IMG/VR virus record: IMGVR_UViG_2681813261_000018
From: a virus
Lineage: Duplodnaviria; Heunggongvirae; Uroviricota; Caudoviricetes
Length of the DNA: 11,945 nt
Direction: 5' to 3' (one strand)
The notes below the pieces were generated by a model that worked only from the letters and a program-made list of their open reading frames with translations, did no database searches and had not been told where the DNA came from. The position numbers and the translations under genes were made by a program. This document shows, one piece after another, positions 2 through 7,636 of this stretch (positions are counted from its first letter, which is position 1; the number at the start of each line of letters is the position of its first letter).

Positions 2-832
2 AACAAGCGTTTTGACGGCGTGCTGGCAAGCGAACTGGCTGACCCGCAACTGTACAAAACCTTTACTGATGCCGCTGAAGTGATTGGCGAAGCATGGGAA
101 AGCCGCGAATTTGGTAAAGCTATCCGTGAAATCATGGCATTGGCTGACCTGGCTAACCGCTATGTCGATGAACAGGCTCCGTGGGTGGTGGCGAAGCAGG
201 AAGGACGCGATGCCGATCTGCAGGCGATTTGCTCTATGGGCATTAACCTGTTCCGCGTGCTGATGACGTACCTGAAGCCGGTACTGCCGAAACTGACTGA
301 ACGTGCAGAAGCATTCCTGAATACAGAACTGACCTGGGATGGTATCCAGCAACCGCTGCTGGGCCATAAAGTAAATCCGTTCAAGGCACTGTATAACCGC
401 ATCGATATGAAGCAGGTTGAAGCACTGGTGGAAGCATCCAAAGAAGAAGTGAAAGCCACAGCCGCACCGGTAACTGGCCCACTGGCTGACGACCCGATTC
501 AGGAAACTATCACCTTTGACGACTTCGCCAAAGTTGACCTGCGCGTGGCGCTGATTGAAAACGCAGAGTTTGTAGAAGGTTCTGACAAACTGCTTCGCCT
601 GACGCTGGATCTCGGTGGTGAAAAGCGTAATGTCTTCTCAGGCATCCGTTCCGCTTATCCAGATCCACAGGCACTGATTGGTCGTCACACCATTATGGTG
701 GCTAACCTGGCACCACGTAAAATGCGCTTCGGTATCTCTGAAGGCATGGTGATGGCTGCTGGCCCCGGCGGGAAAGATATCTTCCTGTTAAGCCCGGATG
801 CTGGTGCTAAACCTGGCCACCAGGTTAAGTAA
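2..832 (+). CDS. metG: methionyl-tRNA synthetase, C-terminal fragment (5' partial; reading frame enters the window at base 2, stop TAA 830-832)
   Basis: Translation ends ...[100 protein letters not shown], which I recognise as the enterobacterial MetG C-terminal tRNA-binding domain. Frame is open from the window edge. Confidence 0.9.
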
Positions 833-851
833 TTAAACAACCTCTCTTCGC

Positions 852-880
852 AATGCCCGGCAACACGCCGGGCATTTTCA
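852..880 (+). terminator. rho-independent terminator of metG
   Basis: GC-rich inverted repeat AATGCCCGGC / GCCGGGCATT (852-861 and 867-876), 5-nt loop, followed by TTTT; 20 bp after the metG stop. Confidence 0.75.
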
Positions 881-917
881 TATAGACACAATCCCTTCTG
901 ATTTACACAGTACCTAA

Positions 918-937
918 AACAATTTGTTTTCTGCCTT
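918..937 (+). promoter_or_regulatory. conserved 20-mer AACAATTTGTTTTCTGCCTT with palindromic core AACAA-T-TTGTT (copy 1 of 2)
   Basis: Identical 20-mer recurs at 4995-5014; both copies lie between a terminator and the next plus-strand gene. Confidence 0.5.
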
Positions 938-946
938 TTGTTGATG

Positions 947-981
947 GAGATAATAAACCACATAAGAAAACAACTTGTTTT
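947..981 (+). promoter_or_regulatory. shared promoter/leader element: GATAAT (-10-like, 949-954) followed by AAGAAAACAACTTGTTTT palindrome
   Basis: Same architecture recurs upstream of the genes at 3629, 5776 and 6262, with partial versions at 2182-2209 and 4085-4100. Start codon follows 12 nt later, with GGAG at 982-985. Confidence 0.55.
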
Positions 982-993
982 GGAGTGGTTGAA

Positions 994-1293
994 ATGTTGA
1001 ACATTACCCAAGCCTACCAGGTGGCATTGATCAGCTCATCTCATACATCAGAGGAAGATGCTCGCCGATTCATGATCGCAAGCAATGAGCTGGATTGGGT
1101 TTCACAAATTGAGTACGGTTGCATTGTCCACGCAGGGTTACAGGACGATGACTGGAAAGATGAGTTGCGTCGATATGGTATATCCGAGGGCGCGATTGCG
1201 AACATTCAGAAAGTACTTGATGTAGGCTTTGACTCTGTACATTTTGATTGTGGTGCGCCGGTCGTTGAAGGGCTTGAGTGCTGGAACTGGTAA
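994..1293 (+). CDS. hypothetical small acidic protein (99 aa)
   Basis: ATG at 994 with GGAG 8 nt upstream; the track ORF begins at GTG 985. Product MLNITQAYQ... has about 17 acidic versus 6 basic residues. No family recognised. Confidence 0.6.
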   Translation: MLNITQAYQVALISSSHTSEEDARRFMIASNELDWVSQIEYGCIVHAGLQDDDWKDELRRYGISEGAIANIQKVLDVGFDSVHFDCGAPVVEGLECWNW

Positions 1294-1338
1294 CAGATAT
1301 TAAAGCATTGGTAGTTTGTTTTTAGGATTATCAAAGAA

Positions 1339-2073
1339 ATGAAAAAGTTGAAAAGTTTAGAAATCCCTGGGACTGGTTATAAATTCTTTATGGACAACGC
1401 GGAGTGTGCACCTAACGCGTTGGAAAAAATACAAAGTCTTATCAACAGCCTTACTGAAGAAGCGAAAGAACTGAAGAGCGAGGCGACAAAGGACAATACA
1501 GCTAAAATCCAATGCTTAAATCTCGTTTCTTATTGTTTATATCAAGTGTCCAAAACACTGATTAAAGGCAATATCTATTACGACGATGAAGACACCTCGA
1601 CACCTGAAGAAAAAGATAGCGATGAAGAACTCTATGAAGATATCTCTACTAGTGCGGGTCACGCTGCCTTCGATGCTATGGGTGAATCGTCAGGCATCAG
1701 ATCGTTTGTTGAACAGAACAATTCGACAATAATGATTGAGTACTGTGAACAAACAAGCTCCAAGGCCATACATGTTCTTCACGATGTTGCTGCAGGGGTT
1801 CGCTGTGAGGCTGAAGCGGTCAGAAAAGATGTATTTGGTGCAGACAGTAATACCGTGAAAGCGTTTATCAACAGTGCTCTGCTAAATTCTTACTCAAACC
1901 TTATAGTCAATGCGGCACTATGCGCAAATTCAGGTGAAGAACACATTGTCATAACTGAAACCAAACATGAGCATCAACAGTCACCAACCATAGAAGAGGT
2001 AACTGCATTGGCTATCAAACAGGCGAGTGAAATTAGTGATGAAATTCTCTCTCTGCTAAACAAAACTAAGTAA
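1339..2073 (+). CDS. hypothetical protein (244 aa) with acidic D/E-rich central segment
   Basis: ATG at 1339 with AGGA 11 nt upstream. Long open frame in AT-rich DNA; contains the stretch DDEDTSTPEEKDSDEELYED. Only 45 nt from the upstream gene with no intervening hairpin, so probably co-transcribed. Confidence 0.65.
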   Translation: MKKLKSLEIPGTGYKFFMDNAECAPNALEKIQSLINSLTEEAKELKSEATKDNTAKIQCLNLVSYCLYQVSKTLIKGNIYYDDEDTSTPEEKDSDEELYEDISTSAGHAAFDAMGESSGIRSFVEQNNSTIMIEYCEQTSSKAIHVLHDVAAGVRCEAEAVRKDVFGADSNTVKAFINSALLNSYSNLIVNAALCANSGEEHIVITETKHEHQQSPTIEEVTALAIKQASEISDEILSLLNKTK

Positions 2074-2099
2074 AACATTGATAATGGCGGTCACAATTT

Positions 2100-2119
2100 G
2101 ATTCTTTTCTATAAGAATC
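2100..2119 (+). terminator. AT-rich hairpin after the 244-aa gene (weak terminator candidate)
   Basis: GATTCTT / AAGAATC 7-bp arms with a 6-nt loop; no T-run follows. Confidence 0.3.
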
Positions 2120-2209
2120 CGTTGATCGCCACTACTCCCCTTCCATACCCGCAATCACATCCTTAAATATCAATAAGTTATAGTTGTTTATACAATCAAG
2201 AAAACAACT

Positions 2210-2940
2210 GAATAACAGATCAACGAAACATCAACGCTTTCACCCGATTTGGTCTAAAAAATTGACGTTTTCACACATCACTGCTTATACCCGTAATTCT
2301 ACGCAGCAGACAGCGCCACAGCGTCCAATTTTCACCACAGACGACCCAACACACTACCAACAAAAACACACGCTCAAAATCGCTCCCGTTGCGTTACACA
2401 ACCATATAAACAACTTATTTTCAGGCATAACAAAACAACTAAATAACACACATGCCATTCCCCAAAACAACCAACCTCTTTATGTCAGGCTACCGAAAAG
2501 ACCCACCTCTTCTCCCCAGGCTACCGGACAACCAACCTAACTTTCACAGGCAATCCGAAAACATTCATACGCGCGATACCCACGACACGCCATTACCCAA
2601 ACAGCGAAGAAACATCAGAATCACTGAAACCCCAACGAAGCCTGTAACCGCAAGGTTTCTCTCAATCCCTAAAGACACGAAACATAACAATCACGGGAAA
2701 CGCCATTACCCAATACACGAATAACTACAAAAGCCTTTCACACACTCCAGACAAACAACTCAAACACAATAACGAAAGGAATCGCCCACCTGCCATTACT
2801 CCATACACGGAGAAGAACAATCACCAAAACGACGAGAACACCCCATAGAAGAACCACCGCAAAACTAACGAAACCACATACACCGACAGGGAAAACAACA
2901 CACCCAATTCACCAACAGAAATAGTCGCCGTATAGAGCGT
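2210..2940 (+). other. A+C-rich, G-poor non-coding tract of about 730 bp with degenerate internal repeats
   Basis: Counting by eye in 60-nt blocks gives about 5-18 percent G and about 75-80 percent A+C on the plus strand. GCCATTACCCAA-type motifs recur near 2454, 2590, 2702 and 2791. The track ORFs here are proline/threonine-rich and lack ribosome-binding sites. Confidence 0.5.
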
Positions 2941-3134
2941 TCTGGAAGGAGTGAGCATTAACGCCTATAGAGAGGTTGAGACAGATAAAACACGAAGAAA
3001 ACACAACATGTATAGCGAACAAGACAGGTATGTATAAGTGGGGAGGGAATGAGGGGTGTCGCCTCCTTTTTCGTATTTATTCAACTCCTGATTTTATCCC
3101 CCGTAACACCCCTACGGTCAGCCTTCGGTCCATA

Positions 3135-3265
3135 CAGGGAAAAGGTTGCATCCCGCTACAGAAACGGCTGGGTTGCCTTCGGGGAACGGCTGGGGATTTT
3201 CAGGGAAACGGTCGAGTTGCCTGTGTGGATTTCGGGAAAAGGCTCGATGCCGGTTCAGAAACGGC
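3135..3265. repeat. iteron-like direct repeat cluster 1 (core GGGAAACGGC / CAGAAACGGC; full unit about 22 bp)
   Basis: Core copies start near 3135, 3158, 3181, 3201, 3233 and 3256, spaced 20-32 bp. Extended units CTGGGGATTTTCAGGGAAACGG (3190-3211) and GTGTGGATTTCGGGAAAAGGC (3222-3243). Confidence 0.55.
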
Positions 3266-3584
3266 GGCGTACCGGTATAGCGAGAGGGAGAGTTGCGGCT
3301 GTCCACCTGTAATGTGCGGGAAGAAGAGAGGCGCTCACGTGCAGGCGAACTTACTTACCGCTGGATTCCCTCTGAATGCCCAGCTACAGCGTAATTGTGC
3401 CAGACAGTCAGCGGGTCACAATCGATTTCAGTAGGTTTTCGGGGAGAGGATTATTCTGCCCACCAGCCACCTTCGGCCACTAAATCAGAATAATGTAAAA
3501 AGTGTACTCGGTACTGAACCTGAAAACTCACTGCCAAAACCACATTCACCGGAATAAAATCCTTTTTCGCCTGTGCGTTATTGC

Positions 3585-3616
3585 GATAATAACACCATCA
3601 AGAAAACATGTTGTTT
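3585..3616 (+). promoter_or_regulatory. shared promoter/leader element (GATAAT + AACACCATCAAGAAAACATGTTGTTT)
   Basis: Matches the elements at 947-981, 5725-5757 and 6209-6240. The ATG at 3608 sits inside the conserved palindrome and is therefore not taken as the gene start. Confidence 0.55.
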
Positions 3617-3628
3617 AAGGATTGCTTT

Positions 3629-3958
3629 ATGTTTGCAAATATCGACATCAACCAAATCAAGAAATTAACTCAAAAAGAGTTTGATCAGTTTTATGAGTTA
3701 GAAGGTTGGTCTTCCACTCTGATCAATTCGCGGTGGGTGCTTGAGCTGATGACTCGTGATGACGCACCTGCTTTGATGATTTGCGACATGGGTGAAGATG
3801 CTGACTTTATGGATATGAGCGAATTTTGTGTGGACACATACAACCGCAGCCAGAAGTACTACTTCACATGCGATAGCGAGAATGATGTTATTTCTAAGGT
3901 CTATCTTCACCTTGTCCAGCATTGGGACGTTCAGGAGTTTCTTGAAGTATTCGCGTAA
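3629..3958 (+). CDS. hypothetical protein (109 aa)
   Basis: ATG at 3629 with AAGGA 7 nt upstream. Product MFANIDINQIKKLTQKEFDQFYELEGW...; no family recognised. Confidence 0.6.
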   Translation: MFANIDINQIKKLTQKEFDQFYELEGWSSTLINSRWVLELMTRDDAPALMICDMGEDADFMDMSEFCVDTYNRSQKYYFTCDSENDVISKVYLHLVQHWDVQEFLEVFA

Positions 3959-3967
3959 TCCCAACCA

Positions 3968-3986
3968 AAGCCAGCAATGCTGGCTT
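3968..3986 (+). terminator. hairpin of the CCAGCAATGCTGG family (no T-run)
   Basis: AAGCCAGCAATGCTGGCTT lies 10 bp after the stop codon; its core is related to the hairpins at 5592-5615 and 6063-6086. Confidence 0.35.
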
Positions 3987-4084
3987 AACTTAATCTGTAG
4001 CCGCAGGGAAGAACCTGCATATCGCTCATGCACCTGATCAATATGCTTTGTAGCCGTTTTCTTACTGGTATTATTTACGCCATT

Positions 4085-4100
4085 GAGAAAACAAGTTGTT
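4085..4100 (+). promoter_or_regulatory. partial leader palindrome GAGAAAACAAGTTGTTT
   Basis: AACAA-G-TTGTT core upstream of the 4113 start; a TATTAT -10-like hexamer lies at 4069-4074. Confidence 0.4.
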
Positions 4101-4112
4101 TACGGAGTTGTG

Positions 4113-4424
4113 ATGAAAAAATCATTGGTTCTTGGTCTGGACAAAGACCAGAAGAGAAAAGAGAAGCCTGCGCTGGTTGCTCAATTAACTTTGCTGGACA
4201 TCGTTGCCAATGGAACCTCTATTCGTCTGTTCCGTGAAACGGCGGTGTCTTTCGATAAAAACACATTTACTCGTTATGTAATGAATGTTCGTCGCCAGCG
4301 TGGAAAAGGCTGGGTGGCATTTCAAAGAATGTGGCCGGAACATCAGCTCGAACTGGCTTTGATGGAAGTTAACCGCGTGGCCCAGCAAGAGATTCAGAGA
4401 GCATCAGTGATGGCAATAGCCTGA
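4113..4424 (+). CDS. hypothetical basic protein (103 aa)
   Basis: ATG at 4113 with GGAG 5 nt upstream; the track ORF starts at TTG 4083. Product MKKSLVLGLDKDQKRKEKPALVAQ... A strong terminator follows. Confidence 0.6.
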   Translation: MKKSLVLGLDKDQKRKEKPALVAQLTLLDIVANGTSIRLFRETAVSFDKNTFTRYVMNVRRQRGKGWVAFQRMWPEHQLELALMEVNRVAQQEIQRASVMAIA

Positions 4425-4458
4425 TAATGTGCAAGTGGTAATTAGTCGACCGTACGAC

Positions 4459-4488
4459 AGCCCCGCCATCCTTACGGGGCTTTTTTTT
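4459..4488 (+). terminator. rho-independent terminator
   Basis: AGCCCCG / CGGGGCT stem (4459-4465 and 4475-4481) with a 9-nt loop, followed by a run of eight T. Confidence 0.85.
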
Positions 4489-4491
4489 GTA

Positions 4492-4520
4492 TTGTAAGTA
4501 CATACTTACGATCATAGAAT
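4492..4520 (+). promoter_or_regulatory. sigma70-like promoter TTGTAA-17-TAGAAT with palindrome GTAAGTA-CA-TACTTAC in the spacer
   Basis: -35 at 4492-4497 and -10 at 4515-4520 with exactly 17 bp between them. The 7-bp-arm palindrome at 4494-4509 overlaps the -35 and spacer, the position expected for a repressor operator. Confidence 0.6.
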
Positions 4521-4552
4521 ATAAAAATAACCAAAACACTACGGAGAGTGAA

Positions 4553-4948
4553 ATGACCGTTAAACGCGAAAAACTGACAGTTGATGTTTACTATGCCTCT
4601 GAAACCGCCGAAGGTAAGAATGTGGCAAAAATCACCGTTGTTACGTACAACACCGAAACTGGTGCCGAAGTCCAGGCCAGTACGATCGTGCGTAAAGGTG
4701 ATGCCTCCGGCGGCGAGTACGCGACTCAATACCAGTCTATTTTCGATGCAACTGACCCGCTGCTGCTGAAAATCGAGAACTACTTCCGCCAGGTTGATGA
4801 AGAGGTGTTTGAAACCATGATGAATATGGTTGACACCGTATTCGCCTCCAGCCTGAATACCAACACTACCTGGATTGGTCAGTACGGTCTGCGCATTACC
4901 TCTGGCATTCCTGCCGACACCTTAATCCCTGAAAGCGTATTCGCTTAA
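4553..4948 (+). CDS. hypothetical protein (131 aa)
   Basis: ATG at 4553 with GGAGA 5 nt upstream; the track ORF starts at TTG 4487. Product MTVKREKLTVDVYYASETAEGKNVAKITVVTYNTETGAEVQ... Confidence 0.65.
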   Translation: MTVKREKLTVDVYYASETAEGKNVAKITVVTYNTETGAEVQASTIVRKGDASGGEYATQYQSIFDATDPLLLKIENYFRQVDEEVFETMMNMVDTVFASSLNTNTTWIGQYGLRITSGIPADTLIPESVFA

Positions 4949-4957
4949 TCCTCTTTA

Positions 4958-4985
4958 AATGGCGCGTAAACCGCGCCATTTTATT
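4958..4985 (+). terminator. rho-independent terminator
   Basis: AATGGCGCG / CGCGCCATT 9-bp stem with a 5-nt loop, followed by TTATT. Confidence 0.75.
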
Positions 4986-4994
4986 AAGCCCGAT

Positions 4995-5014
4995 AACAAT
5001 TTGTTTTCTGCCTT
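4995..5014 (+). promoter_or_regulatory. conserved 20-mer AACAATTTGTTTTCTGCCTT (copy 2 of 2)
   Basis: Identical to 918-937; preceded by CGAT, which gives a GATAAC -10-like hexamer. Confidence 0.5.
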
Positions 5015-5065
5015 ATCTGATTTGTGAAAATGATTTCACTGAAGCAACTTAATAAGGAAACCATC

Positions 5066-5440
5066 ATGGGACTTGATATCTATATCGAGACACAGCCTAA
5101 AAACGATCTGAATAACGAGGCATCCAGAAAGCGGGTTGCTTACTTCCGTAAGTTCAATGCGCTCGTTGGGTGGATGGAGCGCAACGTAGGTGAAGTCGAA
5201 AATTGTGAGCTTTTAGAATTAACGATGAATGACATTTGTTTTCTGAAGGCTCATTTGATGCACATAAACGAAAGCAATTGCGAAGAGTACTTGCCTACCC
5301 GGGAAGGTTTTTTCTTCGGCAGTCAGGAGTACGATGAAGGTTACTGGCATGATGTGGGGGAGTTGAAAGAGCTTGTGGAAGATCTGATTAAGAACCACGA
5401 CTTTCACAATAACAGACTGACCTTCTGCGCCTGGTGGTAA
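5066..5440 (+). CDS. hypothetical protein (124 aa)
   Basis: ATG at 5066 with AAGGAA 7 nt upstream; the track ORF starts at GTG 5024. Product MGLDIYIETQPKNDLNNEASRKRVAYF... Confidence 0.6.
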   Translation: MGLDIYIETQPKNDLNNEASRKRVAYFRKFNALVGWMERNVGEVENCELLELTMNDICFLKAHLMHINESNCEEYLPTREGFFFGSQEYDEGYWHDVGELKELVEDLIKNHDFHNNRLTFCAWW

Positions 5441-5442
5441 AT

Positions 5443-5586
5443 ATGGGCGATTTCAAGAAACGCCTGAAGGAGAGAGCCGAGATGGTCAGAAAGCGAAACG
5501 CCTCTTCTGTCATCAGATACGCAAGGCAGTTTAGTCGCAACAACAAATCAGTTGAGGAAAAGATCCTTAGCGTAATCGGGCGATAA
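5443..5586 (+). CDS. possible small basic protein (47 aa), translationally coupled to the upstream gene
   Basis: ATG lies 2 nt after the upstream TAA, with GGTGG 5 nt upstream. Product MGDFKKRLKERAEMVRKRNASSVIRYARQFSRNNKSVEEKILSVIGR. Not in the ORF track (short), and rich in rare Arg codons. Confidence 0.35.
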   Translation: MGDFKKRLKERAEMVRKRNASSVIRYARQFSRNNKSVEEKILSVIGR

Positions 5587-5591
5587 TTATT

Positions 5592-5615
5592 AAGACCACC
5601 AGCATTGGTGGTCTT
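5592..5615 (+). terminator. perfect 10-bp-stem hairpin AAGACCACCA-GCAT-TGGTGGTCTT
   Basis: Immediately after the 5586 stop. Inverted-orientation relative of the hairpin at 6063-6086; followed by the shared flank AAATGAC. Confidence 0.5.
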
Positions 5616-5724
5616 AAATGACTTTTAATAACCGAAGGTTAGTTTGAAACCTGGCTATCAACCTCCAGAACCTTTCTTGTGTATTCAGCCTGTATTAACT
5701 TCTTTTATGCCTTATCTACACTGC

Positions 5725-5757
5725 GATAATTACACCAACAAGAAAACAACATGTTTA
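5725..5757 (+). promoter_or_regulatory. shared promoter/leader element (GATAAT + TACACCAACAAGAAAACAACATGTTT)
   Basis: GATAAT at 5725-5730. Near-identical to 3585-3616 and 6209-6240. Confidence 0.55.
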
Positions 5758-5775
5758 CGCAGTGAGGATATGCTC

Positions 5776-6057
5776 ATGACTGATTTCACCATTACCCCTA
5801 AAGCACAAAATGTATTTCTTGAATCATGGCTGGACTTGCCGGAAACAGAACAGCAAGAAATGGATCATGTGGATTATGACGAGCAGGTAAGCACGCGATT
5901 CTTCCACTTTGAGGGCTGCGTTTACGACATTGCCGACTTCATGCGAGATGACCGCTTCCCTGAATGGCACGCAAGCTATCCACTAAACGCCTTTGCCATG
6001 CTGATGATCCGTGTGGATGATTCAGGGGATACCATCGACATCGGTCTGCTCCACTAA
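5776..6057 (+). CDS. hypothetical small acidic protein (93 aa)
   Basis: ATG at 5776 with GAGGA 7 nt upstream; the track ORF starts at TTG 5644. About 20 acidic versus 5 basic residues. Confidence 0.6.
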   Translation: MTDFTITPKAQNVFLESWLDLPETEQQEMDHVDYDEQVSTRFFHFEGCVYDIADFMRDDRFPEWHASYPLNAFAMLMIRVDDSGDTIDIGLLH

Positions 6058-6062
6058 AGATT

Positions 6063-6086
6063 AAGGCCACCAATGCTGGTGGCCTT
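6063..6086 (+). terminator. perfect 10-bp-stem hairpin AAGGCCACCA-ATGC-TGGTGGCCTT
   Basis: 5 bp after the stop codon; followed by AAATGAC as at 5616. Confidence 0.5.
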
Positions 6087-6120
6087 AAATGACCATCCTG
6101 TTTCCCGCAGGCTAAAAACA

Positions 6121-6190
6121 CCAACCTCTTACCTCCAGGCAACCGATAAACCCACCTGTTCCCGTCCGGCTACCGCAACTTTCCACTTTG
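6121..6190 (+). repeat. about 70-bp intergenic repeat, copy B (copy A at about 2471-2547)
   Basis: Shares CCAACCTCTT, CAGGC-ACCGA-AA, CCCACCT and GGCTACCG blocks, in the same order, with 2471-2547. Confidence 0.45.
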
Positions 6191-6240
6191 ACGCCTTATT
6201 CGTACAACGATAATTAACACCAACAAGAAAACAATTTGTT
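6188..6240 (+). promoter_or_regulatory. promoter TTGACG (-35) - 15 bp - GATAAT (-10) followed by the shared leader ACACCAACAAGAAAACAATTTGTT
   Basis: -35 at 6188-6193, -10 at 6209-6214; leader palindrome AACAA-T-TTGTT. Confidence 0.55.
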
Positions 6241-6261
6241 ATTTACGATAAGGAAATAATC

Positions 6262-6744
6262 ATGAATTTTATCGCTACTGTAAACGCACCCGCACATGGC
6301 AATATCGCTGTAACGTTCTCTGACATTGAAAAACGAGTACTTGGTGCATGGCGCGACAATGAGACGGTAGAACTGTCAGCACAAGAAAAATGCATTATTG
6401 CACGCGACATCATTGGCAATCGTCGTTACTCGCGGGTATTTGAGAAAGCGTATGTGGTAAATTCTGGATTCGGAACGTTCGTCTTTCCGGTGCGCTCCGG
6501 GCGATTCTGCCAGTCCAAGCTGATTGAGTTCGCTACGCAGATTTCTGTCTGGATTAAAACTCAATCGTCGTTCAAATTTTCCGACGATGAAGCAGTATCG
6601 CAGGGGATGCGGATCGCCAACAATGCGATTAAATGCAAAAACATTACGTATACCGCTGGCGTTGATACATGGAAACTGTTTTGCGCTAACTTTATGCTGA
6701 ATGTATACGCAAGCAACCGCATCCACATCCTTGATGGCGTGTAA
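6262..6744 (+). CDS. hypothetical protein (160 aa)
   Basis: ATG at 6262 with AAGGA 7 nt upstream. Product MNFIATVNAPAHGNIAVTFSDIEKRVLGAWRDNETVELS... Confidence 0.7.
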   Translation: MNFIATVNAPAHGNIAVTFSDIEKRVLGAWRDNETVELSAQEKCIIARDIIGNRRYSRVFEKAYVVNSGFGTFVFPVRSGRFCQSKLIEFATQISVWIKTQSSFKFSDDEAVSQGMRIANNAIKCKNITYTAGVDTWKLFCANFMLNVYASNRIHILDGV

Positions 6745-6746
6745 CT

Positions 6747-6776
6747 GAGAAGAGGGCCAGAAACGGCCCTTTCTCT
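6747..6776 (+). terminator. terminator-like hairpin
   Basis: AGGGCC / GGCCCT stem with a 6-nt loop, followed by TTTCTCT. Confidence 0.5.
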
Positions 6777-7324: not shown

Positions 7325-7354
7325 AAACGAAAAAAGCGCCCATAGTGGGCGCTA
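7325..7354 (-). terminator. rho-independent terminator of the 76-aa gene
   Basis: Read on the minus strand: AGCGCCCACTATGGGCGCT hairpin followed by six T, immediately after the stop codon. Confidence 0.8.
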
Positions 7355-7358
7355 GATT

Positions 7359-7589
7359 TTATTTGTGTAAACTAATTTTGAATCCCATTTCTACAAACGC
7401 TTTCAACATTAAAAATATATCAGCGTCATTCACGTCTGCTTTTTTTCGCTCCTGGTCGCTCAGTAAGTCAATTTTGCGCGTCGTTTCATCGATAAACTCG
7501 ACTGCGCGCCCAGCGTAACCAGCGATCCCAGCGATGCGATTAACAAAATATTCATTGCGCACGTTAACGCCAGCGATAAGAATAAACAT
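7359..7589 (-). CDS. hypothetical protein (76 aa)
   Basis: ATG at 7589 with AAGGAG 7 nt upstream. Product MFILIAGVNVRNEYFVNRIAGIAGYAGRAVEF... Confidence 0.6.
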   Translation of the reverse strand: MFILIAGVNVRNEYFVNRIAGIAGYAGRAVEFIDETTRKIDLLSDQERKKADVNDADIFLMLKAFVEMGFKISLHK

Positions 7590-7602: not shown

Positions 7603-7626
7603 AAAAGCGCCCATAGTGGGCGCCAG
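7603..7626 (-). terminator. intergenic hairpin (terminator or attenuator) between two co-directional genes
   Basis: Read on the minus strand: GGCGCCCACTATGGGCGC followed by TTTT and then directly the AAGGAG ribosome-binding site of the 76-aa gene; near-identical to the hairpin at 7336-7354. Confidence 0.55.
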
Positions 7627-7636
7627 ATTCCATTAA

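Follow-up and report, generated by a model that had tools for sequence, protein, structure and literature searches.

Gene-end hairpins of an SSU5-like phage-plasmid: probable terminator or protective stem-loops in repeated hairpin-promoter units that would favour cassette shuffling

Three hairpins lie just past stop codons in the viral record IMGVR_UViG_2681813261_000018, of which the whole analysed stretch of 11,945 nucleotides is called the window below. A first description made from the letters alone (the sequence-only reading) had treated them as one family with a CCACCA-ATGC-TGGTGG core, present in both orientations, and had proposed RNA processing or stability elements, or small repeat units spread by recombination, rather than simple terminators. 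The locus raises the question of what such a family does at the ends of small genes, and how its two orientations arose. The answer that we consider probable is that the hairpins are terminator or 3'-end-protecting stem-loops, belonging to repeated hairpin-promoter units that drive the modular shuffling of genes.

The region around the hairpins is 98-99% identical to E. coli plasmids of the pLF82 / phage Cyrano type (~110 kb). Matches to the window in 5,426 complete E. coli genomes fell in 253 places, all 253 on plasmids and none on a chromosome. The window comes from an SSU5-like phage-plasmid of the pLF82/Cyrano type, with relatives in Salmonella (pHCM2) and Yersinia (pMT1). Hairpin 1 (5590-5617, + strand, TTAAGACCACCA-GCAT-TGGTGGTCTTAA) and hairpin 2 (6061-6088, + strand, TTAAGGCCACCA-ATGC-TGGTGGCCTTAA) have perfect 12-bp stems and begin 3 nt past the stop codons of the open reading frame (ORF) 5443-5586 and of gene 5773-6057 (phrog_1845), respectively. 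Hairpin 3 (3968-3986, + strand, AAGCCAGCA-A-TGCTGGCTT) has an 8-bp stem and a 3-nt loop, starts 9 nt past the stop codon of gene 3608-3958, and has the 9-mer CAATGCTGG in common with hairpin 2. All coordinates and sequences of the sequence-only reading were correct, the segment 5592-5615 which it gave being the inner 10 bp of hairpin 1; it had also rightly noticed the shorter relative at 3968-3986 and the flank AAATGAC 3' of both long hairpins (5616-5622 and 6087-6093). Stop codon, hairpin and AAATGAC flank together form a direct repeat of 39 nt (left copy 5584-5622, right copy 6055-6093, both on the + strand), whose copies are 79% identical and spaced by 471 nt (repeat family D13).

The three hairpins are not chance occurrences. 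Predicted RNA energies were -18.0, -20.1 and -12.4 kcal/mol for hairpins 1, 2 and 3, with folding z-scores against shuffles of -5.6, -4.8 and -3.2, and the CCACCA-N4-TGGTGG core, allowing up to 2 mismatches, was observed 2 times for 0.35 expected. Searched up to an E-value of 1, Rfam gave no family for the hairpins or their vicinity.

Hairpin variants, both orthologues and paralogues, were collected from 60-odd SSU5-like contigs and plasmids, using as anchor the conserved block downstream or the end of the upstream gene. Among 27 distinct variants, pairing was standard in 89% of cells, and changes on both sides had occurred at 5 of the 12 stem pairs. None of 500 shuffles reached the observed pairing or covariation, and displacing the partner by 1-3 columns left pairing at only 23-51%. 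At three stem positions the stepwise series of G-C, G·U and A-U pairs was complete: AAGGCC/GGCCTT, AAGGCC/GGTCTT and AAGACC/GGTCTT for the first, CCACCA/TGGTGG, CCATCA/TGGTGG and CCATCA/TGATGG for the second, AGGGCC/GGCCCT, AGGGCC/GGCTCT and AGAGCC/GGCTCT for the third. The third stem pair of hairpin 1 is A-T, G·T or G-C among its orthologues. In hairpin 2, a 7-bp core (GGCCACC/GGTGGCC) is invariant across E. coli, Klebsiella, Enterobacter, Salmonella and Yersinia, with adjoining genes ~80% identical, while the outer pairs carry compensatory changes across genera.

The two strands are not equivalent in this respect. Within the ten core pairs, the non-Watson-Crick cells read on the + strand were G·T or T·G in 21 cases versus A·C or C·A in 3, and pairing of these ten pairs amounted to 95.9% as + strand RNA and 89.3% as - strand RNA. 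A bias toward G·T wobbles is expected of structure in a + strand transcript, not of a protein-bound DNA palindrome. Covariation, together with the preference for G·U over A·C, thus argues that the hairpins are structured at the RNA level and on the + strand, in support of the earlier proposal of RNA-level elements. We conclude that small genes end here in conserved + strand RNA stem-loops.

As the stems are palindromic, orientation is visible in the loop only. Hairpins 1 and 2 had been described as inverted versions of each other, and this holds for their loops, which are exact reverse complements (GCAT versus ATGC); the stems are themselves perfect palindromes, and one stem pair differs between the two (A-T versus G-C). 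The notion of a unit inserted two ways had to be abandoned. Instead, the two orientations are in-place inversions of a palindromic hairpin, seen at orthologous sites with unchanged flanks. At one such site the loop was CTGC in four contigs and GCAG in one. A Klebsiella-type hairpin, AGGGCCACC-GATGCT-GGTGGCTCT, was found as its exact reverse complement, AGAGCCACC-AGCATC-GGTGGCCCT, in two contigs (L120 and L154), and the central base of hairpin 3 flips between A and T among close relatives (CAATG versus CATTG). Inversions of hairpin loops are also known from chloroplast non-coding hairpins. We infer that the mechanism was replication template switching or recombination between the arms. Loop inversion between paired arms is a documented result of replication template switching (Mönttinen & Löytynoja 2022, PMC8794818); in that work too the loop, and at times the stem, becomes the exact reverse complement between perfectly complementary arms, flanks being intact, but the genes concerned are those of rRNA and microRNA, whereas here at least three inversions affect one gene-end hairpin family on a mobile element.

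The hairpins belong to an array of genes with a common architecture. In the annotation of Cyrano, window positions 830-6750 consist of small hypothetical genes on the + strand, with a MetRS-like gene on one side and a - strand block on the other. Searches of Pfam and PHROGs matched array genes to families of unknown function only, namely DUF5983 and seven unnamed PHROGs. Their intergenic regions share one layout. After the stop codon come the hairpin and a spacer of 60-100 nt, then a conserved promoter of the sigma-70 type that includes a palindromic operator-like box, and finally a ribosome-binding site ahead of the next gene. The Cyrano genome (108 kb) further encodes a T4-like recombination set comprising UvsW, UvsY, a gp32-like single-stranded DNA-binding protein, RecA and SbcCD.

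Comparison of relatives places rearrangement end-points at these repeats. Close relatives differ in whether they have a cassette of 471 bp (5623-6093, + strand), in which a spacer and a promoter-like repeat precede gene 5773-6057 and hairpin 2 follows it; roughly half of the related E. coli plasmids lack this cassette. In pTW10722 and in a S. sonnei plasmid lacking it, a lone hairpin joins the upstream flank of hairpin 1 to the downstream flank of hairpin 2. Some junction hairpins are chimeric, with the loop of hairpin 1 and the right arm of hairpin 2. In pU_B2_3 a different gene body occupies the place between the same two hairpins, and the right breakpoint lies within the hairpin. More generally, the ends of BLAST segments from ~75 related loci cluster at 5620 and 6060, as well as at promoter repeats and at other gene-end hairpins. 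Plasmid pHCM2 is without the 699 bp between the promoter repeats at 5004 and 5703, and an E. cloacae relative is without a block of 336 bp (5443-5778, + strand) which contains a 47-codon ORF, hairpin 1, spacer and promoter and is bounded by ATGnnnGATTTCA repeats, so that in this relative the genes on either side adjoin. Hairpins of the GCCACC/GGTGGC family close the genes of at least six unrelated protein families; in two of them TTTT(T) follows, as in GCCACC-AGCA(C)-GGTGGC-TTTT, which is an ordinary terminator.

Hairpin plus flank, and likewise the promoter block, are near-verbatim between cassettes and thereby provide short homologies for recombination. On this comparison, the hairpins are boundaries of exchangeable promoter-gene-hairpin cassettes. 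The earlier suggestion of repeat units moved by recombination is borne out to this extent, by the cassette indel between two copies and by the unrelated genes ending in the family.

The ORF 5443-5586 (47 codons) is annotated in Cyrano and not in RefSeq plasmids, and gave no family match; it begins with ATGGGCGATTTCA, an echo of ATGACTGATTTCA at the start of gene 5779-6057, and may be a by-product of the insertion of a hairpin-promoter unit rather than a real gene. In Y. pestis pMT (L031), a copy of IS1541 (IS200/IS605 family) at 1750-2480 stands directly 5' of a promoter repeat, at the equivalent of window ~4950-5000. The corresponding site in pHCM2 is the gene-end hairpin AATGGCGCG..CGCGCCATT, and the upstream genes differ, the IS1541 insertion and a rearrangement using the same seam.

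How could one element serve both ends? In the mechanism that we propose, the hairpin would close the upstream transcript of a small, separately promoted ORFan gene, acting as a terminator or attenuator that is weak and poor in U, or else forming an exonuclease-resistant end left after Rho-dependent termination in a C-rich, G-poor spacer downstream. Recombination at the hairpin and promoter homologies would then delete, insert or replace whole promoter-gene-hairpin cassettes, the empty site retaining one hairpin, at times a chimeric one. Rho-dependent 3' ends in E. coli are known to carry stable U-less stem-loops with Rho utilization (rut) sites directly downstream (PMC6061677). The 97 nt 3' of hairpin 2 contain 40% C and 13% G, a C/G ratio of 3.0; the figures downstream are 22% C, 16% G and 1.4 for hairpin 1, and 25% C, 20% G and 1.25 for hairpin 3. 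The Rho-dependent, protective route would accordingly be a good fit for hairpin 2 and a poorer one for hairpins 1 and 3, and we retain it as an option, having rejected it as the sole mechanism for all three.

Several points weigh against this proposal. A U-tract is absent 3' of the stem in all three hairpins (T-tail scores of 0.5-2.1), as the sequence-only reading had stated, and their terminator score d, of the d'Aubenton-Carafa type, is -4 to -9, versus +2.1 for the canonical terminator at 4460-4482. The compositional signature expected downstream for the Rho route is strong for one hairpin only. Termination, attenuation and stabilisation are each deduced from sequence. The wobble tally counts variants and not independent events, and a strand-biased C-to-T mutation rate could contribute to the wobble bias; moreover, the whole-hairpin inversion in L120 and L154 turned a G·T wobble into an A·C mismatch on the + strand in this one lineage, so that selection for pairing is not absolute. 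As to recombination, the 471-bp difference is compatible with a deletion and with an insertion, and breakpoints are naturally intergenic, so that part of their clustering is expected anyway. On the other hand, the statement that the hairpins act otherwise than as simple terminators was not established either: paralogues with T-runs exist in relatives, and ordinary terminators stand at equivalent positions of the array.

Other explanations must be weighed against the stem-loop proposal. A palindrome with a conserved flank, in more than one copy and apparently in two orientations, recalls repetitive extragenic palindromes and the bacterial interspersed mosaic elements built of them (REP/BIME), a likeness which the sequence-only reading had also envisaged, or miniature inverted-repeat transposable elements, that is, a mobile palindromic unit spread round the host genome. 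The genome-wide search for the core, which the sequence-only reading had called for, was run, and did not find it at high copy anywhere. There are just 2 copies of CCACCA-N4-TGGTGG in the 108-kb Cyrano genome, whereas REP/BIME occur as tens to hundreds of dispersed chromosomal intergenic copies. A 41-nt query (hairpin 2 and flanks) gave 513 places in 238 of the 5,426 complete E. coli genomes, every one on a plasmid and 0 chromosomal. The 24-nt pattern AAGRCCACCA-N4-TGGTGGYCTT matched 22 stretches in 2.9 million viral contigs, 19 of them SSU5-like and the other 3 unrelated terminators; over 185,579 species (one genome each) it matched 84 stretches, with one hairpin apiece except in one SSU5-like contig. 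Among the 85 hairpins scored in this species set, 55 had the T or A runs of ordinary terminators, and the flanks were shared by one contig only, L071, which is mis-binned and SSU5-like. No RAYT-type or other transposase was found adjoining the hairpins, nor is a RAYT (IS200-like) annotated in the whole Cyrano genome, and in-place inversion accounts for the two orientations. Copy number and distribution effectively refute this explanation.

Alternatively, a dimeric protein could bind the palindromes as duplex DNA, which would make them operators, partition sites or regulatory sites of some other kind. Their perfect symmetry extends over 28 bp, the element has ParB-like genes and encodes several regulators (Cyrano annotation), and a near-invariant repeat block lies beside hairpin 2. 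Compensatory changes between the arms that pass through G·T and not A·C intermediates would, however, not be selected by a protein reading half-sites; loop and outer stem vary freely, the position is always directly past a stop codon, and the site is lost with the cassette in about half of the plasmids, all of which makes this reading very improbable. We would give only slightly more credit, and still little, to endonucleolytic processing sites, cut for example by RNase III in a polycistronic early transcript. The stem-loops are indeed stable, conserved, intercistronic and devoid of U-tracts, but family members with T-runs exist, and the stems, of 8-12 bp, are short for RNase III, which normally needs roughly two helical turns, about 20 bp or more of double-stranded RNA. 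In addition, each downstream gene has its own promoter-like repeat, so that processing of a polycistronic transcript is not required. Equally unlikely in our view is a dedicated cassette-exchange system, in which hairpin and flank (TAA..TTAAGGCCACCA-N4-TGGTGGCCTTAAATGAC) plus the promoter/operator repeat would be a recognised site, and a specific recombinase would move cassettes by recognising hairpins folded from single strands, as happens with integron attC sites or IS200/IS605 ends. Cassette limits do coincide precisely with hairpins, the empty site keeps one, sometimes chimeric, many unrelated genes have the same 3' hairpin, and an IS200-family element occupies an equivalent junction in pMT1. 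If this were true, the ORFan array of SSU5-like phage-plasmids would be an integron-like platform, where an element-encoded enzyme cuts, rejoins or inverts folded hairpins and mini-circle cassettes pass between co-resident elements. Yet no integrase or HUH enzyme was found beside the array, the window contains no integrase, and the sole integrase of Cyrano is ~50 kb away. The stems are also perfect, with 12 bp and 4-nt loops and without extrahelical bases, unlike attC sites, which are imperfect inverted repeats with extrahelical bases and adjoin IntI and attI/Pc. Other junctions fall in the promoter repeat or within the 5' end of a gene, which fits general homologous recombination on short repeats, and the element has its own T4-like general recombination system.

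Terminator or protective stem-loops in recombining units, the reading we retain, have a precedent. In T4-type phages, the ORFans of hyperplastic regions lie between promoter-early stem-loops (PeSLs), which are repeats of a promoter and a stem-loop (Arbiol et al. 2010, PMC2839356; PMC4122927). PeSLs terminate transcription, and recombination between them removes, adds or exchanges cassettes; an empty site keeps one chimeric unit (PMC2839356). By analogy, PeSLs are the closest counterpart of the units described here. In both, a sigma-70-like promoter and a stem-loop acting as terminator or attenuator (a predicted role here) form an intergenic unit that is repeated and concentrated in an ORFan-rich variable region; in both, the units delimit the indels and replacements that distinguish close relatives, a single chimeric unit remains where the site is empty, the stems include G·T pairs, and the host element has a T4-like recombination system. 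There is nevertheless no sequence homology, PeSL stems being typically GGGG..CCCC and ours GGCCACC/GGTGGCC, and the promoter block differs too. The PeSL stem lies within or beside the promoter, whereas here it follows the stop codon directly and precedes the promoter by 85-100 nt; and the element here is a temperate siphovirus-like phage-plasmid whose promoters have an extra palindromic operator-like box. Given these differences in sequence, spacing and host element, the relation is one of analogy and not of membership.

Likenesses to other systems are partial. A GC-rich stem-loop a few nt past the stop codon, TTTT(T) in paralogues of relatives, and the presence of the identical stem sequence as an ordinary terminator in many unrelated bacteria all recall intrinsic terminators, from which the three window copies differ in lacking a U-tract and in scoring well under threshold. 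The protective stem-loops of Rho-dependent ends (PMC6061677) are similarly stable, U-less and at gene ends, and the C-rich, G-poor stretch after hairpin 2 matches them; the chromosomal examples, however, are neither repeated families nor recombination junctions, and downstream composition is weak here for hairpins 1 and 3. Morons of lambdoid phages resemble the cassettes as autonomous promoter-gene-terminator units added to a phage genome, but have no shared flanking repeat that mediates movement, whereas hairpin and promoter repeats are common to the cassettes here. The hairpins are ordinary gene-end stem-loops, and no new kind of element. A large genomic survey of SSU5-like phage-plasmids does not mention hairpins, terminators or intergenic repeats, nothing relevant was found in the literature on intergenic repeats of pMT1 and pHCM2, and a limited literature search yielded no description of this architecture in SSU5-like phage-plasmids.

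Clinical Enterobacteriaceae commonly carry phage-plasmids of the SSU5/pHCM2/pMT1 type, which vary greatly in part of their genes. The comparisons show the variable ORFan array to be a set of self-contained promoter-gene-hairpin cassettes, with shared repeats as seams for gain, loss and swap. This is a concrete and testable mechanism for plasticity, parallel to that of PeSLs in T4-like phages, and it offers a practical rule to delimit cassettes when accessory or anti-defence genes are sought. The family is also a clear case in nature of hairpins that invert repeatedly, and of stems that evolve step by step, compensatory changes passing through G·U intermediates.

The promoter part of the unit is a conserved block of 55-75 nt found in every intergenic region of the array, at 925, 3561, 4046, 5701 and 6186 (repeat family D1). 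Its -35 element is of the sigma-70 type, its -10 element is GATAAT, in many cases with TG before it, and the spacer has an invariant GCC; the box CACCAnCAAGAAAACAAnTTGTT is also part of the block. The copy at 5701-5755 (+ strand), 5' of gene 5773-6057, has the GATAAT -10 and the block CACCAACAAGAAAACAAnnTGTT, and is the right end of the 699-bp indel relative to pHCM2. Those at 6186-6240 and 4046-4100 (both + strand) lie 5' of gene 6262-6744 and between hairpin 3 and gene 4113-4424, respectively, and blocks of the same kind at 925-979 and 3561-3615 precede small genes. A palindrome, AAACAA-N-TTGTTT, is found immediately downstream or else upstream of the promoter, and also at 917-930 and 4994-5007; it looks like a shared operator, by which one regulator might control the whole ORFan array.

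In other intergenic regions of the array, ordinary terminator hairpins occupy the position equivalent to that of hairpins 1-3. One follows the MetRS-like gene (852-876, + strand, AATGCCCGGC..GCCGGGCATT then TTTC) and another gene 4553-4948 (4957-4981, + strand, AAATGGCGCG..CGCGCCATTT then TATT). The canonical intrinsic terminator at 4460-4482 (+ strand) is found 3' of gene 4113-4424, its final TT beginning a run of 8 T.

Directly 3' of hairpin 2, three tandem units of ~30 nt (ACCNACCT..CMGGCWACCG) occupy 6086-6179 on the + strand (repeat family D2). This block is nearly invariant across genera, the neighbouring genes being ~80% identical. Rich in C (40%) and poor in G (13%), it is possibly a rut-like region or a protein-binding array. 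The units, of the form ACCNACCT-N9-11-CMGGCWACCG, occur in two sets of three, at 2464-2560 and 6086-6179, and nowhere else in the 108-kb Cyrano genome (5 matches versus 0.16-0.2 expected). No RNA fold supported by covariation was found for the tandem units, and a larger conserved fold joining them to hairpin 2 was discarded, as covariation in RNAalifold was confined to the hairpin. Part of the unit (CCTCTTTA / CCTCTTAC) may bear a loose resemblance to boxA. The ATG of the AAATGAC flank opens mini-ORFs at 5618-5647 (9 codons, MTFNNRRLV) and 6089-6115 (8 codons, MTILFPAG), with the GGTGG of the right arm of the hairpin 6 nt 5' of the ATG, an arrangement resembling a sequestered ribosome-binding site. 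The mini-ORFs were set aside as probably due to chance, since this ATG is missing from Klebsiella-type relatives.

Within the array, no convincing gene was found over ~1.5 kb at 2074-3607, where the ORFs 2184-2540, 2452-2724 and 2976-3434 have no PHROG match. The + strand at 2080-2950 contains 38% A, 31% C and 13% G, with a GC skew of -0.35 to -0.6 and internal repeats, and G-rich repeats (GGGAAAAGG..CAGAAACGGC) are present at 3130-3270. Candidate roles for the stretch 2074-3607 are a long non-coding RNA, an extended region resembling rut sites, or something akin to an origin. Past the ORFan array, in a convergent region, a direct repeat of 32 nt (7332-7363 and 7603-7634) includes the hairpin AGCGCCCA-TAG-TGGGCGCT between two T-runs, and these two hairpins look like bidirectional terminators.

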